A stretch of DNA of 64,000 bases from Candidatus Binatia bacterium (GCA_022824615.1 JAJDZM010000093.1:654-64653); one strand, 5' to 3'; counted from the first letter of the stretch, positions 20,989 to 59,297 are shown. Numbers and translations are program-made. The notes: a model not told the origin generated them from the sequence alone.

Positions 20989-20992
20989 TGCT

Positions 20993-22565: not shown

Positions 22566-24002
22566 ATGAGTGTACCACGAACTATTCTCATGCTGGTCGT
22601 CCTCCTGGGTCTGGGGGCGTATGTCTATTTTGTTGAGCTACCAAAAGCCAAACAGGAGGCCGAAAAACCGACGATTTTGACGTTCGAGAAGGAGGCGGTG
22701 GATACGCTGACCCTGATCTATCCCGAGCGAGAAATCCGCCTGCAACAGACCGCAGCGGGGGAGTGGGACATTACGGCTCCTATCCAGGCGAAAGCCGACG
22801 ATACTGCGGTCAATAATATGCTGACCACCATAGTAGACGAAGAGGTCACTCGCAGTCTGACCCCCGAAGAGCCGGTCGATCTCGCCCTGTACGGCCTGGC
22901 TCAGCCGCTCGTCGTTCTGCGTATTGCTCTGCAGGACAGCACGACACTGCCAAAAGTGTCGATTGGCAAAGACACGCCAGTGGGGTTTTCCGCCTATGTT
23001 CAGAAAGAAGGTGACCCACAGCTCCACCTCACCCGCCAGGCGTTTCGTTTGGGGCTCACCAAAGAAGTCAAGGAACTGCGAGACAAAACGGTGCTACCGT
23101 TTGAGAGAGACAGCGTCACCCGGATAGCCATCAACACCGCCGAGACAAGCATTGTTTTGGGCAAGACGGATGATGGTTGGACGTTTGAAAACCGTACTTC
23201 ACACGCGGTCGATACGACCGCCGTCCAAACCTACCTCTCGACCCTGGAAGGTATGCGGGCGGAAGACTTCGTTGAGCAACCGTTGCTCGACCTGTCAGCC
23301 TTTGGCCTTGACCCGGCTCAACTGACCGTTTCGCTCCACCTTGGGGAAGACGCAAAACGGACGCTATCGGTTGGAGACGAGAAAAGCGTGGAGGCCGGGA
23401 CAACGCAACGCTACCTCAAGCGCGCCGACGGAGAAACGCTTTACCTTGTGCGTACCGGTCTGCTGAAAGATCTGAGTAAGTCAGTCACCGATTTTCGAGA
23501 TAAGAGCGTTATTAGCATACCGGAAGGGAAAATTACCCAAGTCGTGGTGACGCGCGAGGGGAGAGAGGGGTTTACGCTCTCACGAGGGGAAGAGAACACG
23601 TGGGAAATTGATAGAAAATCTGAAGGGACGCTCAAGACGGCAACCCTCAGCCAATTTGTGGCTGACCTGCGAGAACTACGCGGATTCGAAATTGCCGCGG
23701 ACAACCCGGAAGACTTGAGTCTGTATGGACTCGATAGTCCCGCTCTCACTCTTGTCGCAACAGATGAGGCGGGCGGAAAACTCGCGACCGTCTTTCTCGG
23801 TCAGACAACCCACGAGGAAACGGAAAAGCACTTTGCCATGCAGGAGGGGGGGGAGACCGTCTTTACCCTGCGGGATTATGTTTTTTCCCGGTTCGATAAG
23901 AATCCGAAAGATTTCTGGGAGAAGTCGGAACCGGAAGAGGAGAGCGCAGACGCCTCAGAGCATGGGGAAGAGGCGGACGTTCAAGAAGAAGTGCTGGAAT
24001 GA
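22566..24002 (+). CDS. DUF4340-domain protein (usual partner of GldG-like genes)
   Basis: N-terminal TM, repeated beta-rich modules, acidic C-terminal tail. Follows the GldG-like gene with a short gap as typically observed. Confidence 0.55.
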   Translation: MSVPRTILMLVVLLGLGAYVYFVELPKAKQEAEKPTILTFEKEAVDTLTLIYPEREIRLQQTAAGEWDITAPIQAKADDTAVNNMLTTIVDEEVTRSLTPEEPVDLALYGLAQPLVVLRIALQDSTTLPKVSIGKDTPVGFSAYVQKEGDPQLHLTRQAFRLGLTKEVKELRDKTVLPFERDSVTRIAINTAETSIVLGKTDDGWTFENRTSHAVDTTAVQTYLSTLEGMRAEDFVEQPLLDLSAFGLDPAQLTVSLHLGEDAKRTLSVGDEKSVEAGTTQRYLKRADGETLYLVRTGLLKDLSKSVTDFRDKSVISIPEGKITQVVVTREGREGFTLSRGEENTWEIDRKSEGTLKTATLSQFVADLRELRGFEIAADNPEDLSLYGLDSPALTLVATDEAGGKLATVFLGQTTHEETEKHFAMQEGGETVFTLRDYVFSRFDKNPKDFWEKSEPEEESADASEHGEEADVQEEVLE

Positions 24003-24068: not shown

Positions 24069-24779
24069 CTAGTTTTCAATCACCACCTCAACCCGGCGAT
24101 TTTGAGCTCGTCCCGCTGAGTTATCCGACCCATCGGGATTAGTATTGGGTGCAACCGGATACCGTTCGCCGTAGCCCGTTGTTGTCACCCGGGCCTGGTC
24201 GACCCCCGATGTCGTCAAGGCACCGGCGACACTGGCTGCTCGTCTTTCAGACAAGAGTTGGTTTGCTTCTTCGCTGCCAATAGCGTCGGTATGCCCTTCA
24301 ATTGAGACCCGTCGTCCCTGAGCCTGATTATTCAGCACATCAGCAATGCCCTGGACTCGACCCTGCGCATCACCGGTCAGATCAGACCGTCCGAATTCAA
24401 ACAGGACATCTGGAAGATTGACCACCACACCGCGCTCAGTCTCCCGTGCCTCAAGATTGCGCCGCTTGAGTTCTTCAAGCAGTTGGCGGTTGCGTGCTAT
24501 CTCTTGGCGTTGCCGCTCAATTTGCTGCTGGTTCGCCGCGAGTTCAGTATCGCGTTTCTGAAATCGATCACCGGCGACTGCGCCAGTGACACCCCCCAGC
24601 GCCCCACCAATGGCAGCCCCGGCCCCCGGATTTCCCACAGCAGCACCAATAATCGCACCGGTGGCGGCCCCGAGACCCGCACCTCCCAGCGTAGCCTTCT
24701 CTCGAGTCGACAAGGGCTGTGAGCAGCCGACCACAAAGACCAGCATGCACGGCAGCAGAGGAAGGACAATCTTTCTCAT
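24069..24779 (-). CDS. OmpA-family lipoprotein with N-terminal glycine-zipper
   Basis: Lipobox VVGCSQ. Gly-zipper GGAGLGAATGAIIGAAVG. OmpA C-like domain (RVSIEGHTDAIGSEEANQLLSERRAASV). Start set to ATG 24779 (MRKIV...). Confidence 0.8.
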   Translation of the reverse strand: MRKIVLPLLPCMLVFVVGCSQPLSTREKATLGGAGLGAATGAIIGAAVGNPGAGAAIGGALGGVTGAVAGDRFQKRDTELAANQQQIERQRQEIARNRQLLEELKRRNLEARETERGVVVNLPDVLFEFGRSDLTGDAQGRVQGIADVLNNQAQGRRVSIEGHTDAIGSEEANQLLSERRAASVAGALTTSGVDQARVTTTGYGERYPVAPNTNPDGSDNSAGRAQNRRVEVVIEN

Positions 24780-24798
24780 AGCTAACACTTTCTCCGGT

Positions 24799-25143
24799 TT
24801 AGTATTCTTGTTGCCGTTTGAGTTCTTCGAGTTCCTGCCGCTGCTGCTCAAGCTCCCGCCGTTGCTGCTCAAGCTGAAGCTGCTGGTTCTGCTGCTGAGT
24901 TTCTTGATTCTGCATTTTGTCGCCAACGACTGCGCCGGTGACGCCTCCCAGCGCCCCACCAATGGCGGCTCCAGCCCCAGGACTCCCCACGACAGCCCCG
25001 ATAATTGCGCCAGTTGCGGCCCCGAGTCCTGCGCCCCCCAGTGTGCTTTTCTCTCGGGTTGAGAGGGGTTGAGAGCAGGCGCTCACAAGAAACGCTGTCA
25101 GCACCAGGACACCACCCCATCGGATTCCGCTTTTCGTGTACAT
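24799..25143 (-). CDS. glycine-zipper lipoprotein with Q/E-rich coiled-coil tail, paralogue of the N-terminus of 24069-24779
   Basis: Lipobox LVSACSQ, then PLSTREKSTLGGAGLGAATGAIIGAVVGSPGAGAAIGGALGGVTGAVVGD, almost identical to the neighbour. Confidence 0.6.
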   Translation of the reverse strand: MYTKSGIRWGGVLVLTAFLVSACSQPLSTREKSTLGGAGLGAATGAIIGAVVGSPGAGAAIGGALGGVTGAVVGDKMQNQETQQQNQQLQLEQQRRELEQQRQELEELKRQQEY

Positions 25144-29363: not shown

Positions 29364-30239
29364 TCACGTCGAAAGCCCGCTATCCTGCAGAATAGATGTC
29401 TCCCTTCGGTAGGGGGCACGGAAAGAGACATTCTTTGCCCAGGCTGCAAGCGGCAGACCGCTTGTCCCGGAGCGCTCTGCCAGAGCGGCTCGCTTCCGTA
29501 TTAGCCTGGGGTCCAGGGAAACCGCATCACTGCCCATCACAACGACATTGCCACTCGGTACCGAGCAGGCAGTCGTATACCGGAAGGCCGCGGCAAACGT
29601 CCTGCGCGCGGTATCATACACTGGTGTAGAAGAGTGCAGGTTGGAAACGACCAGCCCGTGGGGACCCAGGCACGCACGGCATTCAGCGTAGAAATCGTAG
29701 GTCAAAAGATGGGGAGTAACCCCTTCGGCTCGGTAGGCGTCCAGCATGATAAGGTCGTAGGTTGTCCCAGCCGCTCGTGCGCGTACATACGACCTGCCAT
29801 CGGCAATCACAGCGCGCTGACGCTCGTCCGGGAAAAACCCAAAGAAGCGGGTAGCAATGTCAACAACGAGGGGATCAAGTTCAACGCTATCGAGTTGCGC
29901 GTTTTCAAAAACATGGTGCAATACCATTTGCAGCCGCCCGCCCCCAAGGCCGATCAAAAGAATACGCCGTGGTTGAGCACACCACACCAGGGCTAACACC
30001 ATAGCCTGAGTGTAAGGGGAGAGGAGGTCCAAGGGAGAGCGGGGGTCGAGCCGGGATTGGACTTCTTCAACGCGACTCTGCTGGTGTCGATAGCACAGCA
30101 GCAACTGATTATGCTTTCTGCGGATGACGACATGGTTGTAGGCAGATCGTCGCTCAAAGAGGACGCCCTGTGGAGAGCGGCGGAGTGGAGCGAGGCGACG
30201 GGTGATTGCCGCCAGATTGTGTTCTTGCCAGGGGGACAT
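29364..30239 (-). CDS. spermidine-synthase-family (polyamine aminopropyltransferase-like) protein
   Basis: RILLIGLGGGRLQMV ... VELDPLVVDIATRFFGF ... YDLIMLDAY matches the SAM-dependent spermine/spermidine synthase fold. Confidence 0.6.
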   Translation of the reverse strand: MSPWQEHNLAAITRRLAPLRRSPQGVLFERRSAYNHVVIRRKHNQLLLCYRHQQSRVEEVQSRLDPRSPLDLLSPYTQAMVLALVWCAQPRRILLIGLGGGRLQMVLHHVFENAQLDSVELDPLVVDIATRFFGFFPDERQRAVIADGRSYVRARAAGTTYDLIMLDAYRAEGVTPHLLTYDFYAECRACLGPHGLVVSNLHSSTPVYDTARRTFAAAFRYTTACSVPSGNVVVMGSDAVSLDPRLIRKRAALAERSGTSGLPLAAWAKNVSFRAPYRRETSILQDSGLST

Positions 30240-30306: not shown

Positions 30307-30726
30307 CTACCTGCTCTGGGTCGCAATAGCCAAACGACCGAGCCCTTCGGTGCGAGCCAGGTCCATGACCTGAACGACTCGATTATGGGTGACATCGCCG
30401 TCCGCCCGAATAACAAGTGTCACGTCTGCGCCTTGGCTCTTTTCGGCCTTAAAGCGGGCTTCGAGTTCGGCAATAGTCGTCGGTGTCTCGCCTAAGAAGA
30501 GTTGACCATCTTTCTTCAAGCTCACGCTCAGGCGTTTTTTTTCAGCCGGAGGTTTTGCCGATGCGGCCTTGGGCAGGCTCACATCGACCTGGCCTTCGCG
30601 TGTTTTCTGAAAGGTTGCCAGAAAGCTGAACGTGATGAAGAAGAAGATGAACATATTGATGATGATATCAGTGAGCGCCAGCGGCTCCATACTCGTCAAG
30701 ATTTTCGCTTTGCGCTTAAACTGCAT
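30307..30726 (-). CDS. exbD: biopolymer transport protein ExbD/TolR
   Basis: Single N-terminal TM (LTDIIINMFIFFFI) plus periplasmic ExbD domain. Overlaps exbB. Confidence 0.8.
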   Translation of the reverse strand: MQFKRKAKILTSMEPLALTDIIINMFIFFFITFSFLATFQKTREGQVDVSLPKAASAKPPAEKKRLSVSLKKDGQLFLGETPTTIAELEARFKAEKSQGADVTLVIRADGDVTHNRVVQVMDLARTEGLGRLAIATQSR

Positions 30727-31372
30727 GACGAGTTGGCTCCTGTAGCGGTACGGCCTCCGGGAGGGCTTCTTGCGCGGGCGTCCCGGTCAGTGCATCGAGG
30801 AGTTCTTCGGTACGCGTCTCGGTCAGACGGGTCAAACGTTGTATGCGTGAGGTCAGGTGGTTGTACAAAAGATAGTAAGGGATGGCGACCGTCAGCCCTG
30901 CCGCCGTGGTCAACATGGCCTTATAAATACCACCGGCCAGAACGCCAACGGTAATTTGGTCCCCCAGCGTCTCCCAACTCATAAAGGCTTCAACCAGGCC
31001 AATAATCGTACCCAGGAAGCCCAGCATGGGTGCGACCCCGACCACGCTTGCCAGGGCCGTCATATACGCCTCCAGCCCGGCCACCACCTCGCCTCCAAAT
31101 CGTTCCAGGCGTCGCGTCAGCTCCGTTCGTTCCTCAAAGCGATGCAGGAAGGCCGTCTCGAACAGTCGGCCGAGCGGCGTGTTGTGCTCGCGGCAAACCT
31201 GGAGGGCTGCATTCAGGGTGCCGTCTTGGTCAAGCTGGCCTCCAGATCCCTGAATGAGGAGGTGCAGGCGCTCGCACAGTCGATTGAGCTGCGAGCGAAA
31301 TCGCGCCAAGCTCCAAAACTTCGTAAGGACAATAGCCAGCGCGAAAATGGACAGGGCGATAATGAGATACAT
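30716..31372 (-). CDS. exbB: MotA/TolQ/ExbB proton-channel protein
   Basis: Three TM helices with conserved C-terminal TM2/TM3 region (GLLGTIIGLVEAF). Start MYLIIAL at 31372 (track start 31432 possible). Confidence 0.75.
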   Translation of the reverse strand: MYLIIALSIFALAIVLTKFWSLARFRSQLNRLCERLHLLIQGSGGQLDQDGTLNAALQVCREHNTPLGRLFETAFLHRFEERTELTRRLERFGGEVVAGLEAYMTALASVVGVAPMLGFLGTIIGLVEAFMSWETLGDQITVGVLAGGIYKAMLTTAAGLTVAIPYYLLYNHLTSRIQRLTRLTETRTEELLDALTGTPAQEALPEAVPLQEPTRHAV

Positions 31373-31594
31373 TATATTCCCGCCCTGGTCGATAAAATAC
31401 AGAATTCCCGGAGAGTCCACCTGTGTTGGCATAGCGCGGTATATGTAGCGGAGTTCCCCTCTGAGGGGAAGGGTAGCGTCCTTCGACTTCGCTCGGCTAC
31501 GCTCAGGATGCTCGGAGACAGAACGAAGGTTGAGACCTTTCCTTTTTTTTATCCGACTGGTAATCCGCAGAGAACGACCGGGAGTTAATACGCA

Positions 31595-32517: not shown

Positions 32518-34059
32518 CTATATTTTGAGGTTTAGCTCGATGAAGCCGAAGTTGGCATCACTACCAGTATAGATGTGGTTGACGATACTGTCGCCAAACG
32601 CATGCGCAAAGAAGACGTGTACGTTAACATGCTCGTTGATCGTGTAGTTGAGGGTGGTTTCGATGATCTGGAACAGGTCACGCTTGCCAAAGACCGGACG
32701 GCCGACAAAGCCGAAGCCGGCCTGACGGTCTTCAAGGGTGGCACCCGCACCCTGGTACCACAGGTCATTCTTCTCGCTGACGCGAATATAGTGAAAGTCC
32801 GTACGCCAGACTAACCCTTTGAATGGACGTAGAATCAGCTGGAAGAAGATGTCTTCATTGTTCATCAGATTATAGAAGGTAGAAAACGAATAGACCCGAG
32901 CGGTTGGCAGCATCTGGAAAAAGGTATCGTGGTCGTTGTCGTTGGGGTCGTCGTCGCCCGAACTGCGGTTATACCCAATCCGGAACCAGGGCTTCCACGG
33001 CAATCCCTTGGGTTGCCAGCCGGCCTCGGCGGCAAACGCCCAGCCGTGATGATCCTGCCGGCCCCAGTCGCCGCCCTGCCCGATGCCCAAACCCATCAGG
33101 TCGATCGGTCCCGCGCCGGTCGGAATGACGTGGACCAGATTGCCACCATAGGCATGCACCGTGATATGACGCCGGTCGGTGTTACGCACCACGGCGGGCC
33201 GATTATCGGTCGGCCGCAGCCCGCGGCCGTCGGCATAGTAGATATAGAACAGCCGCGCGTCGCTCGTTTCCGCAAACGCCGGCTTTGTCACGTTGAACCC
33301 GGTGTAAAGGACGTCGATGTCGTCAATAGTCTTCACCCCGGCCAGGTCGAACCCGCCTTGGGTTGGATGGGAACCGTGGACGGTGAGGCTATACGCCCCC
33401 TTGGTGTAGCTGGCCGTAAAACCGTCGAAAGAGCGTCCGGTGTGCGACCAGGCAAAGGGGCCGATCATACGCTGCGATACGCGGAAGCGTTTGACCCAGT
33501 CAATCGTGGGGTCCTTGCTCATCACCTCCGCGCCTGCTGCGAATAGCAACCGCCCGCCTTTGAGCTTCAGCCCCGGTATCCCCAGCTTCTTGAGAGTCAG
33601 ATGCGCCTGCTTGAGAAAGACTACAGCATCGTTCTGCCGGCGATTATGGGCCAGGTAGACGTGCCCCAAACCGAATGCGCCTTGTGGGGCGGGGCCAACG
33701 GCGTCGTCGGGAAGCCCCATCACAGCCGTGTTTTGCGTCTCGACATACAGGTCAAAAGAGTCATCGGTCCACTTGAACCCCAGCTTGGCGACGGTGGCCG
33801 CATAGGCATACGAAGAATCGCCAGAGGTGCCCTCAAACCAGTCCCAGAATTCACCCCGTGTACGCAGGCTGGCCGAGAGCGACAGCTTCGTTGATATTTG
33901 GGAGAGCGGCAGTTCCGCCTTCAGCGGTGCAGGAGCCAGCAGGAGGAGGCATACTCCCGCCAACAATGCGCATCCCCATCGAGGCGCGCGGAATGTCTGA
34001 CAAATCATCTGATGGACCGTCTCAATGGCTTTCGCCATGGTGGTTTGATAGATACTCAC
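32518..34059 (-). CDS. outer-membrane beta-barrel, alginate-export (AlgE-like) family
   Basis: Signal peptide. Alternating beta-strand pattern with aromatic girdle. N-terminal SLRTRGEFWDWF and C-terminal ...FGFIELNLKI (terminal aromatic). Family call from memory. Confidence 0.5.
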   Translation of the reverse strand: MSIYQTTMAKAIETVHQMICQTFRAPRWGCALLAGVCLLLLAPAPLKAELPLSQISTKLSLSASLRTRGEFWDWFEGTSGDSSYAYAATVAKLGFKWTDDSFDLYVETQNTAVMGLPDDAVGPAPQGAFGLGHVYLAHNRRQNDAVVFLKQAHLTLKKLGIPGLKLKGGRLLFAAGAEVMSKDPTIDWVKRFRVSQRMIGPFAWSHTGRSFDGFTASYTKGAYSLTVHGSHPTQGGFDLAGVKTIDDIDVLYTGFNVTKPAFAETSDARLFYIYYADGRGLRPTDNRPAVVRNTDRRHITVHAYGGNLVHVIPTGAGPIDLMGLGIGQGGDWGRQDHHGWAFAAEAGWQPKGLPWKPWFRIGYNRSSGDDDPNDNDHDTFFQMLPTARVYSFSTFYNLMNNEDIFFQLILRPFKGLVWRTDFHYIRVSEKNDLWYQGAGATLEDRQAGFGFVGRPVFGKRDLFQIIETTLNYTINEHVNVHVFFAHAFGDSIVNHIYTGSDANFGFIELNLKI

Positions 34060-36401: not shown

Positions 36402-37378
36402 TTAGGGTGATAAATCTATGGATTCACCAACCAGCGTCTTGATGAATGCGACGATCGCCTCCTTGTCCCCGTCGGACGCCTCACGCCCCAACTGGAACTC
36501 GAACATGACGTCGACCGCATCACGCAGGGTTACAGCGCTTCCGTCGTGAAGATAGGGCTCGGTCAGGATCGCCATTCGCAGGCTTGGGACCTTGAAGACA
36601 TGACGGTCAGCGGCCTGTCCGGTAACATTGTAGCGGCCGAGGTCGGTATCGGTGATGTCGTCCCGATTCTTGAAGTAATCGTTGACCACACCGAAAACCC
36701 GGAACATGTTGCCTCCCGCATTCACGCCTTGGTGACAGGAGGCGCAACCGTAGCTCTTGAACAGGGCATAGCCGTGCTTCTCCAGCGTGCTCAGGGCTGT
36801 GTCATCACCCCCTAGATACTGGTCGAAGCGGCTGTCCGGGGTGATGAGAGATTTGATAAATGCACCGAGCGCGTTCTTGATGTTCTTGCGATTAATACCG
36901 TCTGGATAGAGGAGCTTGAAGCGGTCGGGGTAGCTTTCGTGCTGGTAGAACTTGGAGACGACCGTCGGCCATGTACTTCTCATATAGATCGGCGACTGCA
37001 CATGGATGTCAATCAGGTCTTCGACCGTCTTCGCTCGTCCGTCCCAGAACTGCTTAAAGTTCAAACCGGAATTAAACACAGTCGGGGTGTTGATGACTCC
37101 TGACCTCCCCCCAATCCGGATGGAAACCTTACGGCCATCGTCACCACCAGAGCCGAGATTGTGACAACTGTGGCATGATACGGTATTGTCCTTTGATAAT
37201 CTCGGGTCATAGAACAGCATCCGTCCGAGCATCAGCTTTTCGACATTAACCTCAATCTCTTCTAGAATCGGCTTGATGGGCTCCTCAGCACGCACATCGC
37301 TGACAAAGGCGAAACAGACGACCGCAAATACTATCCAGGTAATGCGAATGCTCTCGAGAGTCAATTTTTGAGTGGACA
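36402..37378 (-). CDS. di-haem cytochrome c peroxidase (CCP/MauG family)
   Basis: Two CxxCH sites (CHSCHNLG, CASCHQG) and conserved FKVPSLRM...PYLHDGS. Start at ATG 37378 (MSTQKL...). The N-terminal extension in the track is unlikely. Confidence 0.85.
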
Positions 37379-37614
37379 TCGGAGAGGTTACCCCTGATAA
37401 GATGGGCTTCGGCCGAGGCCAAAATAAAAATGAGGGAGGAAATTTATTCGGGTCGCACTCAGCATCTGGCCAAGAAGAATAAAACCGGCAGGATAGTGGC
37501 GCGTTGGTAGCATATTTGTCCGAGGATTGTCTAGGTGTTGTGGGCTTTTCTTTTCTCATAGCAGCAAAAGCCTCCTTCGAGTCTGCTTCATAAACTGTTA
37601 TAAAGGACCCTGCC

Positions 37615-38166
37615 ATGAGAAACTGCTTAAAAATCACCCACTCGATCACGGTCATGCTTTCCCGCTGTCGTCTTTGCCTGATTGTACTCGGGACCTGCGT
37701 CTTATCCGTTTTTCCAGAGTTCCTTCTTCAGGCTCAGCCGCAGAATGTGGAAGTCCAGGTCCGGCCATTAAACGCAATAGCCCCGGAGATTGTCGTCCCG
37801 CCGGGCAGAGGTTCGTCCGCCATGCGCAGGACCACGGACGACATGCGTAGAGCCGCGGACGACAGGTGGGAGCGCGTTCGGAACAGTGAAAACTTTGTGG
37901 TGGAAGTAAAGATTCACAACGGAACTGACCGCTCCTATCTGATTAAAGCCAATAAGGTCTCGTTACGCGCCGAGTCTGGCGAACGCGTGAGACCGCTGGA
38001 AGCAAGCGAAGACGGTCCGACTCCTGTCCTTACGGATCAGACCATTGCGCCCGGCGCGGAGATCCGTGGCTATCTCTCTTTCCCACCTGGCTCCTATACG
38101 GGTGCGCGGGGGTTTCTTATTGAAGAGCGCACCCAGGCGAACGAGGGGTTCAGTATCGACTTTTAG
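37615..38166 (+). CDS. secreted hypothetical protein
   Basis: Hydrophobic N-terminus. No family recognised. Confidence 0.35.
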   Translation: MRNCLKITHSITVMLSRCRLCLIVLGTCVLSVFPEFLLQAQPQNVEVQVRPLNAIAPEIVVPPGRGSSAMRRTTDDMRRAADDRWERVRNSENFVVEVKIHNGTDRSYLIKANKVSLRAESGERVRPLEASEDGPTPVLTDQTIAPGAEIRGYLSFPPGSYTGARGFLIEERTQANEGFSIDF

Positions 38167-40651: not shown

Positions 40652-43063
40652 TTAGGCCCCACACGTTTGACTGGCAAAATCCTGAATCTTGGTCTTGAGA
40701 TTGGCATCACCAAGCCGTTTCAGCATTCTTTGAGCGCTGCTGACCGCCTTACAGGCTTGGTCCGCATTGCCGAGGGTGTCATTCAGCCGGGCCACTTCAA
40801 ACGTCCCACGAAACCACAGCGGGTCACCAACCTGGGTCCCCTTGAGCATGGCCTCCCACAGGGAAAGCGCCCGTTTATTATCCCCCCGCACCTCAGAAAC
40901 CTGGGCGAGTCCAACAATAGCGACCAGCGCATAGGCACCCTGCTTTTGCTCCAGGTCTTTATAGATAATTTCAGCCTTGTCGTATTGCTGGGTGTCGAGA
41001 TAGAGCTGAGCGAGATCATAGTGGAAGCGATCCGGGGACTGATCCTCCGCAAATTTGCCATCGTTCTTGAGCCAGGCTTCATGCAGGCGCGTCAGCGTCT
41101 GCTTGGCAATAAGTTCGTTGTCCTTATCATCCTGACGGCGGAGTTTACGGATGTCTTTTTCCAGCACGCCGGCCAGGCCGGCCAGGAGTTCCTCCTGTTT
41201 GTCGGCCTGATAACGCTCTAAAATCGTGTCCACGTCTCTGGCGAGTTCGGCATAGCGTCCGGTCTTCTGCAGGGCGACCAGCCGGGTCCGGGCAACGGTT
41301 TCAAACGCCTCGGGCTGCTTCGGATATTTCTCTTCAAAGCCTTCCAGAAAAGAAACGATCTGTTCGGCGTTGGCGTCCATGTCGTGGCTCAAATAGACCG
41401 CGTGCATCACGCTGACCTTGCCCGGATATTCGCGATAGGGGTCTCGCTTCACCAGTCTGGGACTGCTCTTGGCCAGTGTCGCGCTGTTCTTCCAGTAGGC
41501 GTCCAGGCTGGTACCAATCCGCTGGCGGAGTTCGTCTTCGCTCAGCCCACTACTGGTATCGCCGTCTTCAATCGCGTGCAGCACCTCGAAGTACGACTGG
41601 AGCGTGGCATAGTCGGCTCGCACCCGGAACGCCGGCGCGCCGCGTACCTTTTTATACGCATCGGCCGCTCTCAAATACTCCTCTTGCTCCTGGTAATACT
41701 CACCCAGCCGGAAGTGGGCTTCGTAGATGGACCGGTGCTTGGGGTATTTCCGCGCGAAGTCGCGAATCGCTTGTACATACAGCCTCCCGTTCTGCGCGCT
41801 TTGGTCCCGGGCGTATAACGACTCCGCCGACTTGAACTGAAAGTATTCCGCGTCAGCCGCGTGCTTGGTCTTTGCCCCCCCGTTGCTGAGAAAGGTGTCC
41901 AGGGTGTTGATGGCTTGTCGATAGCGACGTTGTTCATACAACCCAACGCCAAGATAGTATTGCGCGTCTGTCTGATACACCGCAGCGTTGGGGTCGTTTG
42001 AAGCAATGACTTCCTCAAGAAAAGGAACCGCCTTGGCAAAGCGTCGTTTCTGCATATGCTCCTTGGCCTTTAACCAGGGCGGAAACGGGTTTTCCTGCTC
42101 GGCGATGACGAGTTCTTCCTCGCGCGTCAGCTCTGCCTGTATCAACGCATCGGCGCGGTCCTGCCACTTGCCGCCGGCCTTGCGGAGTTCAAGAATCAAG
42201 GCCAGGAGTTGACCGCGCAACTGGCTGCGCTTCTTGCCGCTCGCATTTCGACTCTGCTTGGCAATATTTTTTGCCTGCTGGAATTGGGCTTGCGCCAACT
42301 CCGTCGGAGAAGGTTGGCCCTTCCCACCACGCTTGGCATAGCGCCGCGTCTGCTCCAGCGCCCTCTGGGCCTTTCGTTTCATATCGGCAGACACGCCGGG
42401 CTGTTTGAGCAGCAGTTCAAAATCCCGTATGGCCCAGTCAAACTTCTCAAGTTCGCGCTCGCTCAGCGCTCGGCCGAACAGGCTCTCGTTCTTGAGCCGT
42501 GAGGCCTGATCGCCAACCGCGAATTCACCAAAGCCGTTCATGGCTTTGGTCAGCAGGGTTTCCTTTTTCTTCCCATCGAACGTGAACGAGCCGATGTAGT
42601 TCAGCCAGTTCAAGAAATATAAGGCGCGCGCAGCCACCCCTTGTTCGGCGCGGTACTCCTGTGAATCCTGCACGGCCTCCAGGTCGCCATCCCGCGCAAT
42701 AACATCCTGCGTCATCTGGTCAACGCGCTTGAAACTACCGGTATAGATATCGTTGAGCGGACCCTGGAGCGTCTCGTAGATATCGCGAATGGCTTTTTTG
42801 CTCGCTGGGGTTTTAACTGCTTGGGCCAAATTGGGGAGCGCAACAAACTCCAGGGCAACCGGACCCAGGATTTGAATGGCTTGCAGCTTGGCCTGCGCAT
42901 CCCAACTCCCCTGTTTGAGCGCATTGGCCTTGCCCCGGGCCTGCTTCGCCTTGGTAGAGAGTTCAGCAATAGACGCCGCCTCGACCTCGGAATTCAGCCA
43001 GCCCAGGGTCAGGCTCAGAGAGATCATACCGACAATGGAAACCAGACGCCGCACGCTTAACAC
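40652..43063 (-). CDS. large secreted tetratricopeptide-repeat (TPR) protein
   Basis: 803 aa. Signal peptide. Many TPR-like Ala/Tyr/Leu-rich helical pairs. Last gene of the exbB-exbD-VWA-TPR co-directional set. Confidence 0.75.
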   Translation of the reverse strand: MLSVRRLVSIVGMISLSLTLGWLNSEVEAASIAELSTKAKQARGKANALKQGSWDAQAKLQAIQILGPVALEFVALPNLAQAVKTPASKKAIRDIYETLQGPLNDIYTGSFKRVDQMTQDVIARDGDLEAVQDSQEYRAEQGVAARALYFLNWLNYIGSFTFDGKKKETLLTKAMNGFGEFAVGDQASRLKNESLFGRALSERELEKFDWAIRDFELLLKQPGVSADMKRKAQRALEQTRRYAKRGGKGQPSPTELAQAQFQQAKNIAKQSRNASGKKRSQLRGQLLALILELRKAGGKWQDRADALIQAELTREEELVIAEQENPFPPWLKAKEHMQKRRFAKAVPFLEEVIASNDPNAAVYQTDAQYYLGVGLYEQRRYRQAINTLDTFLSNGGAKTKHAADAEYFQFKSAESLYARDQSAQNGRLYVQAIRDFARKYPKHRSIYEAHFRLGEYYQEQEEYLRAADAYKKVRGAPAFRVRADYATLQSYFEVLHAIEDGDTSSGLSEDELRQRIGTSLDAYWKNSATLAKSSPRLVKRDPYREYPGKVSVMHAVYLSHDMDANAEQIVSFLEGFEEKYPKQPEAFETVARTRLVALQKTGRYAELARDVDTILERYQADKQEELLAGLAGVLEKDIRKLRRQDDKDNELIAKQTLTRLHEAWLKNDGKFAEDQSPDRFHYDLAQLYLDTQQYDKAEIIYKDLEQKQGAYALVAIVGLAQVSEVRGDNKRALSLWEAMLKGTQVGDPLWFRGTFEVARLNDTLGNADQACKAVSSAQRMLKRLGDANLKTKIQDFASQTCGA

Positions 43064-43197
43064 TCCTTTTTTGACCCTGTCCCTTATGTTATGGCCTTGC
43101 GTTCAAAGCTCCCGCCGTTCATCCCCCCCTGCACGAAGAGAAGCGCTTGCCTACAGGGTTTTCTGGTATCACGCTCTATCAACCACCGGACTGCATT

Positions 43198-44439
43198 CTA
43201 CTCCAAGTCCCGTAAGTATCTTGCCATCTCCACTTCCCAGCGCGAACCAAAGGTCATAATAATGATGTTCCTGGTCAATGCCTTTTCCTCAGTCAGCGGG
43301 ATAAAGTCACCCCCGCCAGCCCGGGCCACAGACGCCATGGTATGCCGGAATTCGCGGTAGAAACTCGGCAACGGCGTTGGCTGAAAGGCGACATTCATAA
43401 TTTTTCCGGTCTGCTCCCAGAGCGCGTACTCAAAGTCCTCGTGCATCTTATCGGCCAGGTCCATCACGCTGACTACTCCACCGCGCGCCTGGAACCCTTG
43501 CGCCAAACCCAGCACGCTACCCATGCTTTCCGGATGGGGCGGTGAGCCGGCGGCGATAATGACCACCCGGCGTGAGCGTTTCCGCCAGCTCAAATCATTC
43601 ATGGCCGCGTCCATGCCTTCATACACCGCTTCCGGCCAGTCGCCGCCACCGTCAGAGTGCAGATTGGCCAAAAAGCCTTTGAGCTTGGGTGTGGAAAAAC
43701 TTAAGTCAACCCATTTTGTGACATATTCTTCGCCCCTGTCCCGATAGGCCACCACACCGATCCGGGAGGTCGGGACGAGCTTTCGCAATAACGTTACCAG
43801 CTTCGTCAAGCGGTCACGCACCGAATCGATCACAAACTGCATGCTGTCTGTGGCGTCAATCACCAGGGCGACATCAAGACCAACCTTGCGTAGCCCCCGT
43901 CCATAGTCTCCGAATCCTCCGCCCCCGCCGAGGTCCCCCGCGCCAACCAGACCGCTGAGCTGGGTGTCGATACCGGAAAAACTACTGTCAGCGCGCTGGA
44001 CCTCAATCGTCACTGGCCCGATACCCGAGAAGACGGGAATCGCCGCCCGTTGGATAGGGGCCTGGAGCGGACCGGTGGATGACGGACCGGTTGGGCGTGC
44101 CCTATTCGGCGCGAGATCCTCCATGGTCAGGATGCCGGGAATATCCTCGAGCGAGGGTTCACCTTCCCAATCGTCCGGCATCTCCTCTTCCGCCATGGCG
44201 TCCAGCTCTTCCTGTGTGAGCGGCAGGGCATTGACCCGAACCATTTCCGGCTCTTTCATGATGGTCACGGCCGTGGTGGCAAAGATGGACAAAATGAGAA
44301 TATGGGCCGCCGTCGAGAAGGCGAACCAGCGCGCATTTCGGCTAAATCCTCCACCCCGATACAGCCACATATCCTCTTGAATTTTCCGCTCGACTGACGT
44401 GCTCTCGGATGTGTTTGGGTTCTCTTCGGGCGAAGCCAT
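43198..44439 (-). CDS. membrane-anchored periplasmic von Willebrand factor A (VWA) domain protein
   Basis: One TM (WFAFSTAAHILILSIFATTAVTI). Acidic/Pro-rich linker. MIDAS DATDSM in VALVIDATDSMQF. Confidence 0.75.
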   Translation of the reverse strand: MASPEENPNTSESTSVERKIQEDMWLYRGGGFSRNARWFAFSTAAHILILSIFATTAVTIMKEPEMVRVNALPLTQEELDAMAEEEMPDDWEGEPSLEDIPGILTMEDLAPNRARPTGPSSTGPLQAPIQRAAIPVFSGIGPVTIEVQRADSSFSGIDTQLSGLVGAGDLGGGGGFGDYGRGLRKVGLDVALVIDATDSMQFVIDSVRDRLTKLVTLLRKLVPTSRIGVVAYRDRGEEYVTKWVDLSFSTPKLKGFLANLHSDGGGDWPEAVYEGMDAAMNDLSWRKRSRRVVIIAAGSPPHPESMGSVLGLAQGFQARGGVVSVMDLADKMHEDFEYALWEQTGKIMNVAFQPTPLPSFYREFRHTMASVARAGGGDFIPLTEEKALTRNIIIMTFGSRWEVEMARYLRDLE

Positions 44440-44474
44440 GACCTTCCCCTCCTTCAGTGATTGCGACGGACTCC

Positions 44475-44909
44475 TTAACCGGTCTGCCGGGCCGCAATCG
44501 CGACCTGAGCCGCTCCCGCTCGTTGGGCAATAGAGAGAATTTTGACCGCCTCTCCTAAAATGACGTCCTTATCCCCTTCGAGCACAACCGGGACATCCGG
44601 CTTGGCGGTGACTTGCTGCCGAATGGCCACCTCAAGATCGGCCATGGTCACCGGTCTGGCGTTCACAAAAATTTCCTTTTGGGGTGTCACCGTAATCACA
44701 ATCTGCCGTGGCTCCGATTCGGTTTCCTGTACCTCGGGCAGGTTAATCTCTGCGCCGGATTGAACCATCGCCACACTGGTTACCATAAAGATGATCAGTA
44801 GCACCAAAAAGATGTCGCACAAGGGAACGATATTGATCTCGGCCATAATATCGGATCCACTCCCGCTCTTCTTGCGTGGGTTAGTCATTCCCATGAGCTT
44901 TCCTTCCAA
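44475..44909 (-). CDS. exbD: biopolymer transport protein ExbD/TolR (second copy)
   Basis: EINIVPLCDIFLVLLIIFMV TM plus ExbD periplasmic domain. Alternative starts 44894 / 44888. Confidence 0.8.
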   Translation of the reverse strand: MEGKLMGMTNPRKKSGSGSDIMAEINIVPLCDIFLVLLIIFMVTSVAMVQSGAEINLPEVQETESEPRQIVITVTPQKEIFVNARPVTMADLEVAIRQQVTAKPDVPVVLEGDKDVILGEAVKILSIAQRAGAAQVAIAARQTG

Positions 44910-45525
44910 GGCGGACTGCTTCGAGTACGCGATCCGAACTGATCGTCATTGCTGCCTCGACCCGCTCAAGCTTGGTATGAAAATAGTTATAGAAGACCAC
45001 CGCAACGATCCCGACTGCGAGCCCAAGAGCCGTTGCAACCAGGGCCTCAGAAATACCACCAGCAACCACAGCAAAACCACCACTGCCCTCAACCGCCATA
45101 TTTGTGAAGGATTTGATAATCCCGATGACGGTACCGAGGAGTCCGATGAACGGGGCACTCACCCCCACCGTTCCCAGCACCCAGATGCTGCCTTTGAGCG
45201 CCTCGATCTCCTCGAAGCGCCGGTCCTCAATGATTTCAGACAAATATTCGAGCGATTCGCCCTCTTGTTGAGCAAGGACATCACGAAATATCCGGCCCGC
45301 CGGTTTGTCCGCCTGCTCCTCAGCGGAGGTCATAGCTCCTTGAAAATCACCCTTCTGTAAGACGCCAACCAGACCACCGGCAATCTGCAAGGTCCCACCG
45401 ATCAATCCGCGTAGGGCAACTATCCGTTCAAAAATGATGGTGATGACAACCATCGACATGATGATCAGGGGATAGGTGATATACCACCCCTGCTGGATCA
45501 TATCGAGAACACTTAAACCTTCCAT
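44881..45525 (-). CDS. exbB: MotA/TolQ/ExbB proton-channel protein (second copy)
   Basis: Three TM helices, conserved TolQ/ExbB C-terminal half (VGVSAPFIGLLGTVIGIIKSF). Confidence 0.8.
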   Translation of the reverse strand: MEGLSVLDMIQQGWYITYPLIIMSMVVITIIFERIVALRGLIGGTLQIAGGLVGVLQKGDFQGAMTSAEEQADKPAGRIFRDVLAQQEGESLEYLSEIIEDRRFEEIEALKGSIWVLGTVGVSAPFIGLLGTVIGIIKSFTNMAVEGSGGFAVVAGGISEALVATALGLAVGIVAVVFYNYFHTKLERVEAAMTISSDRVLEAVRLGRKAHGND

Positions 45526-45557: not shown

Positions 45558-46160
45558 CTATACCGCTTCTCTCTCCGAAGAGGAGACGCGCATTGGTCCA
45601 TCTGCCTTCAATTCCCGACCGTTCTGTCCATCGATTGTGGCCAGGAATTCCTCAAGCCAATGAATTTCTCCTTCCAAGTACGTCAGTCCATGCGCAATAA
45701 TCTGGGCTTGCGGAAGTGTGACACCCTGCTCATTCCAGTAGGTTTGCTGCTCGGTGACCCAGGCCAGACGCCGGTGGGTCCACTCAAGTTGGCTCTGGAG
45801 TGCATCACGCAGTTCCGAGCCGTCAAGCAGATGACTAAAGGCAAGGGCGGCGTTCAAGGGGTCAAAGACTTTGGTTCGCTCTTTGGTGTCGAACAGTTGA
45901 CGCCGCAACTCGGCCCGCAAATAGTCGTGGCCGGCCGGCGTGATTTGGTAGACCTGCCGAGCCGGATAGTTGCCCTTTTGCTCGACCTTGGTCTTTTCCA
46001 CATAGCCGGCCTGTTCAAGCTGCCCGAGATTATAGTAGAGCGAGCCACCACTCAGGTTGATATACTTGGCGTACAGCCGGTGCTCGACCTCCTGCCGCAG
46101 TTCATAACCATGAAACGGCTTCTCGGATAACAGCCCTAAAATGACAAGTTGAACACTAAT
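45558..46160 (-). CDS. PadR-family transcriptional regulator; 5' end uncertain (no canonical start codon upstream of the HTH)
   Basis: Winged-helix PadR signature VILGLLSEKPFHGYELRQEVE...YYNLGQLEQAGYVEKTKVEQKGNYPARQVYQITPAGH is encoded upstream of the track start (a GTG at 46001). Frame is open back to a TAA at 46182-46184 with no ATG/GTG/TTG; ATT at 46160 or CTG at 46133 are the only candidates. Confidence 0.5.
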   Translation of the reverse strand: MSVQLVILGLLSEKPFHGYELRQEVEHRLYAKYINLSGGSLYYNLGQLEQAGYVEKTKVEQKGNYPARQVYQITPAGHDYLRAELRRQLFDTKERTKVFDPLNAALAFSHLLDGSELRDALQSQLEWTHRRLAWVTEQQTYWNEQGVTLPQAQIIAHGLTYLEGEIHWLEEFLATIDGQNGRELKADGPMRVSSSEREAV

Positions 46161-47817: not shown

Positions 47818-48006
47818 CGTGGAGTCTCCTTTTCCTGCTGGCAGGGAGAATAGAAGGTCTGGCTTACCACAGGCGACCGCGAGTGCATAGAGAGAAACGG
47901 CAGGCCATCCTCACACTCCCGCAAGCGTCCTTGTCCCGTATTCTTCTTCTGCGTACAGTTGCGGGGAAAGAGGCGAGCGCATGTTGTTCTACAGCCGGAG
48001 GTTCTT

Positions 48007-49077
48007 ATGTCAACGGATGTAACCGCACTCCTTACCCGCGCCGTCCAATCAGGCGCTTCTGACATCCACCTCAGCAGTGGAGCACCACCCATGATTCGGC
48101 TCGACGGGATCATGAAGCAACTTGAGCACGCCTCGCTGTCCCGGGATGAAGTCCACGCTCTCGTGTACGACATTATGGATGAGGGTCAGCGAAAGATGTT
48201 CGAGGAGAGTCTCGAACTCGACTTCTCCTGTGACCTGGGTGACGCGGGGCGCTTTCGGGTGAATGTCTTTATGCAGCAACATGGCGAGGGTGCGGTGTTT
48301 CGGGCCATTCCAACGCAGATTGCCTCGTTCGAGGAACTCGGGCTACCGTCGATTCTCAGCCAACTGTGTACGCGGAGAAAAGGGCTGATCCTGGTGACCG
48401 GTCCAACCGGCTGTGGAAAATCGACCACCCTGGCTGCCATGGTCAATCATCTCAACGAGACCGTCGAAGGTCACATCGTCACGATTGAAGATCCCATCGA
48501 ATTCACTCATCAGTCCAAGAAATGCCTCGTCAATCAGCGCGAACTCGGCGTTCACACCCACTCGTTTGCCAATGCGCTGCGGGCGGTCTTACGCGAAGAT
48601 CCCGACATTATTCTGGTTGGCGAAATGCGCGACCTGGAAACCATCCAACTCGCTCTCACGGCCGCCGAAACCGGTCATCTCGTTTTGAGTACTTTACACG
48701 CGCCAGGCGTGGCGCAGGCCGTTGACCGGATTATCGACGTCTTTCCAGCCGCTCAGCAACCTCAGATTCGAACTCAGTTTGCCGACTCGATTGAAGCCAT
48801 CGTCACCCAGACTTTATGTCAAAAGAAAGGCGGGGGGCGCGTCGCGGCCTTGGAAATTCTGATGGGCAGCACGGCAGTCCGCACACTGATCCGCGAGGGT
48901 AAGGGGCACCAAATCCTCTCAGCCCTCCAGGTTGGCCAAAAGGACGGGATGCAGACCATGGACCGGGCGCTTGTTGACCTCGCTACACGAGGGCTTATTA
49001 CGCAGGAAGAAGCGCAGGCCAAGAGCCCGACCCCGAACCTCTTTGGTCAGAGTGGCCGCGCAGTCCTACGCAGATAG
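48007..49077 (+). CDS. pilT: type IV pilus retraction ATPase PilT
   Basis: Walker A GPTGCGKST, Asp/His boxes, IREG motif (AVRTLIREGKGHQI). Start ATG 48007. Confidence 0.9.
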   Translation: MSTDVTALLTRAVQSGASDIHLSSGAPPMIRLDGIMKQLEHASLSRDEVHALVYDIMDEGQRKMFEESLELDFSCDLGDAGRFRVNVFMQQHGEGAVFRAIPTQIASFEELGLPSILSQLCTRRKGLILVTGPTGCGKSTTLAAMVNHLNETVEGHIVTIEDPIEFTHQSKKCLVNQRELGVHTHSFANALRAVLREDPDIILVGEMRDLETIQLALTAAETGHLVLSTLHAPGVAQAVDRIIDVFPAAQQPQIRTQFADSIEAIVTQTLCQKKGGGRVAALEILMGSTAVRTLIREGKGHQILSALQVGQKDGMQTMDRALVDLATRGLITQEEAQAKSPTPNLFGQSGRAVLRR

Positions 49078-57300: not shown

Positions 57301-58029
57301 ATGAAGATTTTCTCTTCTCTTCTCTTCTCTTCTCTTCTCTTCTCTTCTCTTCTCTTCTCTTCTCTGAGCGCGTGTAGCAGCGCCACAGTCGGAAGAGAAG
57401 CGTTGAACCCGGCCCAACAGCAGATGTTGGACCGTGGTCTGGAAGTGTCGTCCGTCGCCGTCAAAACCGGCCAGCCCATTGCTGCGGGACGGATGTATGA
57501 ACGCCTGTCCACCTCCTTCCCGAGCGCCCCGGAACCGAAACTCGGGCTCGCCTATATGGCCCTGCACGCGGGCGACTTTGCGACCGCCGATGCCCTGTTC
57601 ACCGAAGCCAGTACACTGGCGACGCGACCGGCCCTCAAGGCCGAGGCCCTGCTCGGTGCCGGGCGGGCGAGTCTGGGGCGAGAAGACTTCGCCGCGGCCA
57701 AGACCCACTTCCTCGCCGCGGCCGAACCAGCCCAAGGCTCGCCTGTCGAGTCCTGGGTCATGAACGGTCTGGCGGTCGTGGCCGCGCTCGAAGGCGATTA
57801 CCCCCTGGCCGAGCAACACTACAGAGCAGCGCTGACAGTGGCGTCGCATCCGCTCATCACGGCCAACCTGATGCGGACACTCGTCGAGGCGGGCCGCATA
57901 GACGAAGCCCGCCAACTCCATGCCAGCCACAGCGCCACCTACTGGGCGGAAGGCGACAGGGCCGAGTTGTCACAACTGCTCAAAAACAGCACCACACGCG
58001 GGACGGAGCAAACGCCGGTCACTGAGTGA
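57301..58029 (+). CDS. TPR-like (Ala-rich helical repeat) lipoprotein whose signal peptide is encoded by a pentanucleotide repeat
   Basis: MKIFSSLLFSSLLFSSLLFSSLSAC with lipobox LSAC. Downstream TPR-like helices (GLAYMALHAGDFATADALF...). Confidence 0.6.
   Translation: MKIFSSLLFSSLLFSSLLFSSLSACSSATVGREALNPAQQQMLDRGLEVSSVAVKTGQPIAAGRMYERLSTSFPSAPEPKLGLAYMALHAGDFATADALFTEASTLATRPALKAEALLGAGRASLGREDFAAAKTHFLAAAEPAQGSPVESWVMNGLAVVAALEGDYPLAEQHYRAALTVASHPLITANLMRTLVEAGRIDEARQLHASHSATYWAEGDRAELSQLLKNSTTRGTEQTPVTE
57310..57364 (+). repeat. (TTCTC)11 perfect pentanucleotide microsatellite inside the 5' coding region
   Basis: 55 bp perfect repeat starting 9 nt after the ATG. It encodes (SSLLF)n in frame. 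Confidence 0.95.
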
Positions 58030-58037
58030 GGAAAGGT

Positions 58038-59297
58038 ATGATGCATACAAGGCAAACGACCCCCAAGCCGTCTCACCGCCTACTGCGGGCGTTCGGCCTC
58101 AGTCTGGCACTCAGCCTCGGGTCCGCCGAATATGGAGCAGCGGCAGAGCCGATCAAGCCGCTCCCGGTCATGATTGAGGTGAACGAAGCCAAAGCCGAAC
58201 TCGGCAGGCTGCTGTTCCACGAACCGAGATTGTCCAAGAACGACACCATCTCCTGCGCCACCTGCCACGACCTGAGCGCCGGTGGGGATGACGGACAGGT
58301 CGTGTCCACCGGCATTGAGGGCCGGACCGGGCTCGTGAACGCGCCCACCGTGTTCAACTCCGCCTACAATTTCAAGCAGTTCTGGGACGGCCGGGCACAT
58401 ACCCTCAAAGAGCAGGTTGACGGCCCGCTCCAGAGCCGCATCGAGATGGAAAGCATCTGGCCCGATGTCGTGACCAAACTCTTTCAGGATAAAGACTATC
58501 CCCGCATGTTTCAGCAGGCCTATCCCAATGATTCTCAGATTATTTCTCGCGAGAACATCAAAGATGCCATTGCCGAGTTCCAGCGTTCCCTGATCACGCC
58601 CAACAGTCGTTTCGACCAATGGCTCAGAGGCAACGTTGGAGCCATCAACGAACAGGAGAAAGAGGGCTACGCCTTGTTCAAGCGCTACGGCTGTGTGTCC
58701 TGCCATCAAGGGGCCAATGTCGGCGGCAATATGTTCCAGGTCTTTGGGGTCATTAACGACTATTTCAGAAAGCGGGGCAATATCACCGACGCCGACCTGG
58801 GACGCTTCAACGTGACCGGAAACGAGGTCGACAAACACGCCTTCAAGGTCCCCAGCCTGCGCATGGCCGCTCATACCGCCCCCTATCTGCACGACGGCAG
58901 CGCCGGGACCCTGCGCGACGCGGTCGATGCCATGTTCGAGTTCCAGCTCGGACGAGAAGCCCCGGACGAAGACAAAGAGGCTATCGTGGCCTTCATCAAG
59001 ACGCTGGCAGGAGAGTATCGAGAAAGCAATTACCGCTTTGACCTTGGAGAGAGCCCGCTGTCTGCCGAGTTCCAGGAAGACAGTCGCAACGGACACCTCG
59101 GGCAGAGTCCCGCGCCGAACGGCCTCCAAGAAATCTCTGTGGTAGAGACCGTTGAGGGGAGTCCTCCCGCGGACATCGCCGAAACCATTTCCCAAAACGG
59201 CAAGGCCCCCCCGCTCCGTACGGGTCGAGCCGCCAAACCCGCCGCCGAAAGCGAAGCAGCCGGACGTTCGGGGCGTTCGGGGCGTTCGGGACGATAA
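58038..59297 (+). CDS. di-haem cytochrome c peroxidase (CCP/MauG family), paralogue of 36402-37378
   Basis: CATCHDLS and CVSCHQG haem sites, FKVPSLRM, PYLHDGSAGTLRDAVD, DKEAIVAFIKTL (identical block in the paralogue). C-terminal tail ends in GRSGRSGRSGR (9-bp x3 repeat). Confidence 0.85.
   Translation: MMHTRQTTPKPSHRLLRAFGLSLALSLGSAEYGAAAEPIKPLPVMIEVNEAKAELGRLLFHEPRLSKNDTISCATCHDLSAGGDDGQVVSTGIEGRTGLVNAPTVFNSAYNFKQFWDGRAHTLKEQVDGPLQSRIEMESIWPDVVTKLFQDKDYPRMFQQAYPNDSQIISRENIKDAIAEFQRSLITPNSRFDQWLRGNVGAINEQEKEGYALFKRYGCVSCHQGANVGGNMFQVFGVINDYFRKRGNITDADLGRFNVTGNEVDKHAFKVPSLRMAAHTAPYLHDGSAGTLRDAVDAMFEFQLGREAPDEDKEAIVAFIKTLAGEYRESNYRFDLGESPLSAEFQEDSRNGHLGQSPAPNGLQEISVVETVEGSPPADIAETISQNGKAPPLRTGRAAKPAAESEAAGRSGRSGRSGR

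Follow-up and report, generated by a model that had tools for sequence, protein, structure and literature searches.

Background

Of the periplasmic force transducers driven by motors of the ExbBD/TolQR type, two are well characterised, TonB and TolA. Here we describe a four-gene set, exbB-exbD-vwa-tpr, on the minus strand of a 64,000-nt stretch of DNA from a Candidatus Binatia bacterium (the window; all coordinates are counted from its first letter). In this set the place of the transducer is taken by a membrane-anchored protein that ends in a VWA domain, and the last gene encodes a large secreted tetratricopeptide repeat (TPR) protein. The operon is probably (at a rough probability of 0.7) a self-contained force-transduction module, similar to those of TonB and TolA and driven by the proton-motive force (PMF).

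Transducers with a vWA domain have been predicted computationally by Williams-Jones et al. (2025, Mol Biol Evol msaf138; PMC12204202), with Tichowtungia aerotolerans (Kiritimatiellota) as the exemplar. [quoted passage not shown] In the AlphaFold3 (AF3) models of the same study, the His of the transducer helix touches the motor. Paired TolR-like/ExbD genes are reported there to be frequent in Planctomycetes-Verrucomicrobia-Chlamydiae (PVC) bacteria. An earlier reading of the window, made without database searches (the sequence-only reading), held that the combination of genes found here is not a described system. This claim is out of date, because vWA transducers beside tolQ/tolR-like and TPR genes had already been predicted (PMC12204202, section 8).

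The Binatia system shares with the predicted vWA transducers the SHLS/His helix, a disordered linker of ~100 aa (with, in Binatia, a candidate for the strand-like box that follows the helix), the C-terminal vWA fold in the place of a TonB/TolA domain, and the adjacent tolQ/tolR-like and TPR genes. It has only one ExbD and one transducer, while the Tichowtungia exemplar has two heterologous TolR-like genes and two transducers. The gene order, exbB-exbD-vwa-tpr with the TPR gene last, also differs from that of the exemplar. The Binatia proteins keep the DxTxS motif in the VWA domain; the exemplar, which also has the SxxxH helix, lacks that motif, and its aligned site is F-I-D-A-D-K-R-M (sequence from the supplementary information). 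Binatia is, furthermore, a phylum outside those named in PMC12204202. As judged from sequences and structure models, the Binatia system has the architecture of the vWA transducers and is a distinct sequence subfamily of them.

Two other systems are similar in part. With the Ton system the Binatia operon shares the proton-path residues of ExbB/ExbD, and its transducer has a short cytoplasmic N-terminus, an S-x3-H helix, and a long flexible periplasmic linker, as TonB has. It differs in having a VWA domain instead of TonB_C, in having no linked receptor that could be found, and in encoding a dedicated TPR partner. The linker is acidic and Gly-rich here, whereas that of TonB has Pro-Glu/Pro-Lys repeats. 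The TolQ-only 'trans-pore helix' vWA family (Idiomarina; PMC12204202) also has a membrane-tethered vWA protein beside a TolQ-like gene. That family, however, is without tolR/exbD and SHLS and has an Asp in a TolR-like helix, whereas in Binatia ExbD is present and the helix has Ser and His and no Asp.

Conservation of the four-gene set

The four co-directional open reading frames (ORFs) encode ExbB (44881..45525), ExbD (44475..44909), the VWA protein (43198..44439), and the TPR protein (40652..43063). Their inter-gene spacings are -29, 35, and 134 nt when the longest ORFs are taken. The ORFs lie where the sequence-only reading had placed them. ExbD has an alternative start, the ATG at 44894, with GGAAGGAAAG upstream as a ribosome-binding site. 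This ATG is more likely to be the true start, and it would give a 14-nt overlap with exbB.

The sequence-only reading had proposed a neighbourhood check across genomes, which bears it out: the order exbB-exbD-vwa-tpr is found in 80 of 80 related genome loci wherever the contig reaches, and in remote lineages the four genes are permuted. The VWA protein is 92-98% identical to that of complete or near-complete Candidatus Binatia chromosomes reconstructed as metagenome-assembled genomes (MAGs). In the most distant group the identity falls to 39-46% for the VWA protein and 27-34% for the TPR protein, and the flanking genes are unrelated. Since the linkage persists at such low identity and with unrelated flanks, the four genes form a self-contained unit. 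The arrangement is far beyond chance.

Five remote metagenomic loci (L085-L089) were reached through a profile search. Three of them (L085, L086, and L088) read VWA-ExbB-ExbD-ExbD-TPR, L087 reads VWA-TPR-ExbB-ExbD, and L089 reads VWA-ExbB-ExbD-TPR. The TPR protein of the window is homologous to those of the remote clusters (E 1e-23 to 4e-49). The window ExbB is 47-50% identical to the ExbB of L087 and L089, and only 27% identical to its own paralogue in the window, ExbB2. Because the TPR proteins are homologous and ExbB is closer to the remote clusters than to its paralogue, all three components (motor, transducer, and TPR protein) are inherited together. Remote relatives that carry a taxonomic label belong to Gammaproteobacteria/Pseudomonadota, 'Deltaproteobacteria', Gemmatimonadota, and Binatia.

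Some relatives have other neighbours. In two Gammaproteobacteria MAGs (L083 and L084, 8001-12407) the gene for a VWA protein with the SxxxH helix precedes one for a weakly TPR-like protein of 756 aa and then one for a CobW/COG0523 metallochaperone GTPase; DUF1302 and DUF1329 genes, both outer-membrane-related, lie on the flanks of this cluster. Another protein, P0470, is labelled Candidatus Binatia and is 60% identical to P0243, the VWA protein of a cluster of the double-ExbD type. Some Binatia may carry both cluster types as paralogous systems.

The ExbB/ExbD motor

ExbB is a proton channel subunit of the ExbB/TolQ type with 214 aa and three hydrophobic segments (PF01618 MotA_ExbB, E 2e-31). 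ExbD, of the ExbD/TolR type, has 144 aa when counted from its TTG start and a single transmembrane (TM) helix (PF02472 ExbD, E 2e-27). The best NCBIfam matches are TolQ for ExbB (TIGR02796, 103.5 bits vs a cut-off of 221) and TolR for ExbD (TIGR02801, 88.1 bits vs 127.3), so that neither protein reaches the equivalog cut-off.

When ExbB is aligned to E. coli ExbB (5sv0/6tyi) and TolQ, LLGTVIG falls on LFGTVWG and ISEALVATA on IAEALLATA. When ExbD is aligned to TolR (9ddm) and ExbD (6tyi), the column of the TM Asp is kept, within PLCDIFLVLL. The conserved motor positions correspond to T148, E176, and T181 of ExbB and D25 of ExbD (D23 of TolR). The proton path of ExbB/ExbD looks intact in these alignments.

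The VWA protein: membrane helix and linker

The third gene encodes the proposed force transducer, a TonB-like anchored VWA protein of 413 aa. Its Pfam matches are to VWA_4 (E 3e-7) and VWA_2 (E 5e-6), both just above the cut-offs, with VWA just below; there is no match in NCBIfam. A total of 314 homologues were found. The protein consists of a 37-aa N-terminus, a hydrophobic helix (aa 38-61), a 124-aa linker, and an alpha/beta VWA fold from aa 186 on.

The TM helix (44257..44328) has S42 and H46 followed by L50, T55, and T59, in an SHLS-like arrangement. S42, H46, L50, and T55 are invariant in the 56 Binatia-type sequences (56/56), and the Ser and His are invariant as well in all 32 remote relatives of a second alignment. 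A profile search against 1.84 billion representatives gave 365 clusters at E<=1e-30. The helix was then scanned for, with the His as anchor, in those 110 of the top representatives in which the MIDAS-type motif (MIDAS, metal ion-dependent adhesion site) is preceded by 100 residues or more. A TM helix precedes the motif in 100 of the 110, and 96 of these 100 have [S/A/G]-x3-H. Across the family the helix columns show Ser at 84% and His at 100% (by construction); at +11 Leu accounts for 57%, and at +15 Thr is more frequent than any other residue. The window protein itself has Phe at +11 and Ala at +15. In E. coli TonB the SHLS spacing is S16-H20-L27-S31. Because S-x3-H is invariant and the family-wide spacing of Ser, His, Leu, and Thr matches SHLS, the front end is of the TonB type, as the sequence-only reading had proposed. 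By analogy with TonB, S42 and H46 are a candidate SHLS-like motor-docking motif.

Longer relatives have a cytoplasmic FHA or Ser/Thr-kinase domain N-terminal to the helix. This places the N-terminus inside and the VWA domain in the periplasm, and the distribution of charges flanking the helix of the window protein agrees with this topology. Among P0303, P0310, P0325, P0326, P0334, P0351, P0379, P0313, and P0362, some of which have SxxxH, the domain before the helix is FHA, with a single instance of a Ser/Thr protein kinase instead. This suggests, from domain content, a connection between the periplasmic VWA head and phospho-signalling in other lineages.

The N-terminal tail has a motif of its own. 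At aa 20-27 (44359-44382) it contains an acidic-x-Trp motif that reads QEDxWL in near clades and RFDPW in distant clades, and D23 and W25 are retained in at least 90% of the sequences. We know of no equivalent in TonB. The motif could contact the cytoplasmic face of ExbB.

The periplasmic linker (aa 62-185, 43885..44256) was delimited by composition, AlphaFold2 (AF2) modelling, and column conservation. Its first part has 16 acidic and 2 basic residues and its second part is Pro/Gly-rich, with 12 Pro and 19 Gly in total. The acidic block holds a Binatia-specific sequence, DDWEGEPSLxDLPG. In the AF2 model, built from the 56-sequence alignment, residues 32-61 form a helix, and the predicted local distance difference test score (pLDDT) is below 50 at 62-74 and 85-183. 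A conserved strand-like motif, E65-x-[IV]-[KR]-V, lies 4-10 residues past the helix; the AF2 monomer has no strand there. By analogy with the predicted vWA transducers (PMC12204202), we infer that this motif is a candidate 'motor box' that may contact ExbD/TolR.

The VWA head

The VWA domain occupies aa 186-413 (43201..43884). In the AF2 model residues 186-412 form a VWA fold of alternating strands and helices (pLDDT 65-92). Foldseek matches this model to VWA domains only (integrin alpha1 and alpha2 I domains, CMG2, TEM8, Rpn10, and TRAP; E ~1e-6 to 1e-5). The integrin alpha1 I domain is found at E about 1e-6, and ligand-binding integrin I domains are the closest folds. In Pfam, TonB_C (PF03544), TonB_2 (PF13103), and TolA_C have no match at E<=1, either with the whole protein or with either half. 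The C-terminal domain is thus VWA and not TonB, in agreement with the sequence-only reading. That reading had also seen no adjacent TonB or TonB-dependent receptor, and neither is present among the 30 flanking and other large ORFs, a subset of those in the window, that were scanned with Pfam.

The MIDAS-type site, D195-A-T197-D-S199, is encoded at 43843-43857. D195 and S199 are invariant and T197 is found in at least 90% of the sequences. An invariant GGGD267 sits where canonical VWA domains read GGT. The canonical TDG position reads G-S-P-P-H302 in Binatia and GDAPPH in wider relatives. At the sequence level the site is conserved but atypical.

The TPR protein

The fourth gene encodes a TPR/alpha-solenoid protein of 803 aa, recognised by several weak TPR matches in Pfam. 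A Sec-type signal peptide (aa 1-29, 42977-43063) ends in SEVEA before AS and has no lipobox cysteine. The protein is therefore a secreted TPR protein, as first proposed. Members of its family are ~800 aa long. AF2 predicts a continuous all-helical solenoid with a pLDDT of 90.3. A search of this model against the PDB with Foldseek found generic TPR scaffolds only (TM-score <=0.26), including a Campylobacter flagellar periplasmic scaffold, and no specific relative.

The best-kept stretch is N-terminal and includes D125-G-D-L-E-A, LYFLNWL, GFxEFAxG, and ESLFGRAL. Near the C-terminus C771 and C801 are invariant, which fits a periplasmic disulfide.

Proposed mechanism and alternative explanations

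In the mechanism that we propose, ExbB and ExbD would form an inner-membrane proton motor driven by the PMF. The VWA protein would dock on the outside of this motor through its N-terminal helix, with Ser42-x3-His46, as TonB and TolA do, and its disordered linker of ~124 residues would span the periplasm and transmit force across it. The VWA head would use its MIDAS-type metal site to grip an acidic residue of a partner, and the 803-aa TPR protein may be that dedicated partner, or a scaffold, bound by the head. A functional coupling between the VWA protein and the motor is likely. Whether the TPR protein is the direct ligand of the VWA protein is less certain, and we put this at somewhat below even odds. 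The sequence-only reading had suggested a motor-coupled module for adhesion, assembly or signalling. The motor-coupled part is well supported at the level of sequence by the helix motif, the intact motor residues, and the gene linkage; the role in adhesion, assembly or signalling is conjectural.

Several points weigh against force transduction by this operon. Docking of the VWA helix on the motor is inferred from the helix motif. Metal binding by the VWA head is not assured, because Thr stands for the first Ser of the MIDAS motif, GGGD for GGT, and GSPPH for TDG. The relatives in L082 and L083/L084 are without adjacent motor genes, and no outer-membrane component is conserved in the cluster. 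The published support for the vWA-transducer class is computational only. Moreover, similarity between the Binatia VWA protein and the Tichowtungia exemplar is only borderline, with a BLASTP E of 0.001 over 123 aa (the N-terminal half of the VWA domain) and an hhalign probability of 5.6%.

Another explanation is that the operon is a functional analogue of Tol-Pal that stabilises or constricts the outer membrane when cells divide. The VWA head would then stand for TolA domain III, and the TPR protein would have the part of CpoB/YbgF. Such a role would refine force transduction rather than exclude it. By NCBIfam score the motor is slightly nearer to TolQ/TolR than to ExbB/ExbD: the TolQ model gives ExbB its best score (103 bits), and the TolR model does so for ExbD (88 bits). 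The TPR protein, periplasmic like CpoB, matches tol_pal_ybgF at E 1e-10. Several TPR homologues are named 'TolA-binding protein' by JGI, and the order motor-transducer-TPR resembles tolQRA...cpoB. However, the scores are well under the curated cut-offs (221, 127, and 90 bits), and the match of the TPR protein covers ~40 residues of generic TPR. The protein is three times the size of CpoB (803 vs ~260 aa). The operon has no TolB, Pal, or TolA domain III, and there is no adjacent tolB or pal in any locus examined. A Tol-Pal analogue is unlikely on this evidence.

The operon might also serve gliding or adhesion, in which the motor would move or unmask a VWA adhesin; the closest folds of the VWA head are adhesive integrin I domains. 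A TolQR-type motor with a VWA adhesin has a precedent (PMC12204202; PMC11761067), and such a role is a speculation of PMC12204202. In the Agl-Glt machinery of Myxococcus, a TolQR-type motor is tied functionally to a VWA/MIDAS protein, CglB, and to TPR components. CglB, however, is an outer-membrane lipoprotein adhesin without a TonB-like anchor, whereas the VWA protein has its anchor in the inner membrane and is not surface-exposed. Agl-Glt has more than 15 further components, and no Glt-like outer-membrane or periplasmic component is linked here. A PilT-like ATPase gene and GldG-like ABC accessory genes are found elsewhere in the window, but these motility-type neighbours are not conserved in distant Binatia loci. 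We regard gliding or adhesion as quite improbable.

Membrane-anchored VWA and TPR proteins of the envelope are also generally known to co-occur in Bat aerotolerance operons. The operon could encode a static VWA-TPR scaffold of the Bat/MoxR style that merely shares an operon with ExbBD and exerts no force. MoxR and DUF58 genes are found 7 kb from the gene of one distant relative (L082), and the relatives without adjacent motor genes fit such a scaffold. Kinship with Bat-type operons, raised by the sequence-only reading, finds no support here: neither the window cluster nor any of the 80 Binatia loci encodes a MoxR AAA+ ATPase or DUF58. The apparent energy source here is instead a proton motor. 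The invariant polar Ser and His in the TM helix, with TonB-type spacing, are hard to explain in a passive anchor, and the lineage of the motor has stayed with the VWA and TPR genes while their order was shuffled. A static scaffold is very unlikely.

Finally, an ordinary Ton system with a divergent TonB and a cryptic TonB or TolA C-terminal domain, which the TonB-like helix and linker and the position directly after exbB-exbD might have suggested, is refuted by the empty TonB_C, TonB_2, and TolA_C searches of the whole protein and its halves and by the Rossmann-like VWA fold that AF2 extends to residue 412 and that Foldseek matches to VWA domains only. Among the 30 scanned ORFs there is also no TonB-dependent receptor. 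Affiliation with anti-phage systems (Zorya-like, with a MotAB-type motor) was considered separately and rejected, as none of the four proteins has a match among the PADLOC defence models (e.g., Zorya-type).

Neighbouring genes and the second ExbB-ExbD pair

Upstream of exbB, on the same strand, is a gene for a PadR-family transcriptional regulator (45558..46160; PF03551 PadR, E 5e-18), the 3' end of which lies 32 nt from exbB. It has no in-frame ATG, GTG, or TTG start; ATT is found at 46160-46158, where homologues begin with MSV. This may be either a rare ATT start, a start-codon mutation, or a sequencing error. Where the contig extends far enough, padR lies 5' of exbB in nearly all loci of the near and intermediate Binatia; in the distant group (L047-L080) it is missing there. 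In the window's clade the operon probably begins with padR. On the other side, 3' of tpr, an 84-nt gap is followed by an unrelated molybdopterin oxidoreductase gene. The flanks give no functional clue, being conserved neither between Binatia clades nor in the remote loci.

A scan for promoters and terminators gave weak consensus matches only, at most ~2 standard deviations (sd) above shuffled controls; for example, there are 13 terminator-like sites against a mean of 6.8 (sd 3.0) in the controls. The 134-nt gap between vwa and tpr has no promoter or terminator match in this weak-consensus scan, which is uninformative on operon boundaries.

A second exbB/exbD pair was described as an orphan by the sequence-only reading. 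The pair is real and lies at 30307-31432 (ExbB2, 30716-31432; ExbD2, 30307-30726; both on the minus strand, by Pfam), but it is not simply an orphan. It is followed by a gene on the same strand for a spermidine-synthase-like protein of ~300 aa (29364-30239, by Pfam). All NCBIfam matches of this module are below threshold. In an intermediate Binatia clade (L026-L046 and L054, ~11800-14000) ExbB2-ExbD2 and the spermidine-synthase-like gene come directly after tpr, so the second module is possibly linked to the operon. In the window it lies ~9 kb from the four-gene operon, and it is missing from the loci of the distant group. ExbB2, ExbD2, and the spermidine-synthase-like protein make up a second conserved three-gene module. 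To our knowledge, no combination of a motor pair followed by an aminopropyltransferase-like protein has been described.

Several other genes of the window deserve mention. A PilT-type T2SSE ATPase (PF00437, E 2e-50) is encoded on the plus strand at 47959-49077, opposite in direction to the operon and 2.4 kb upstream of it; its place beside the cluster is not conserved in distant Binatia loci. A putative ABC transporter gene (19475-20988) is followed by genes for a GldG-like ABC_transp_aux protein (20966-22543) and a DUF4340 protein (22509-24002). At 24069-24962 (minus strand), 16 kb from the operon, is a gene for a peptidoglycan-binding lipoprotein of the YiaD/OmpA type with a glycine zipper, which scores 66.7 against a Pal cut-off of 125. 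Two paralogous genes of the di-haem cytochrome c peroxidase/MauG family are found at 36402-37655 (minus strand) and 58026-59297 (plus strand), and the longest ORF of the first has a long extension at its N-terminus. The window also encodes, at 5498-9331 (plus strand), a thermolysin-family (M4) metalloprotease of 1277 aa that has a propeptide motif, and, at 32518-34059 (minus strand), an AlgE-like 'Alginate_exp' outer-membrane barrel.

Conclusions

The analysis adds several points to the one published computational prediction of vWA transducers. The class reaches Binatia, and it contains a large subfamily marked by a MIDAS-type motif. The TPR gene is not a neighbour by chance: its product is a homologous partner that is inherited along with the transducer. 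The lineage of the motor keeps company with VWA and TPR even where gene order is shuffled, and forms with a single ExbD and with a double ExbD both occur. For mutagenesis we offer S42, H46, D195/T197/S199, D267, and H302 of the VWA protein and D125-E129 of the TPR protein.

A bolder and rather doubtful suggestion is that the Binatia-type system and the ~365 related sequence clusters of the same VWA subtype represent a third working mode of ExbBD/TolQR. Here a metal-dependent MIDAS 'catch' head, and not a beta-strand-augmenting TonB or TolA domain, would grip an operon-encoded TPR solenoid of 700-800 aa, perhaps at the invariant acidic D-G-D-L-E loop. This would be a self-contained, PMF-driven pull-and-release machine for envelope remodelling or for the maturation of periplasmic complexes. 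If true, it would be the periplasmic counterpart of the ATP-driven MoxR-VWA chaperones in a compartment where ATP is absent. A third class of transducer, with a different and metal-dependent head, would broaden the range of what bacteria power across the periplasm.

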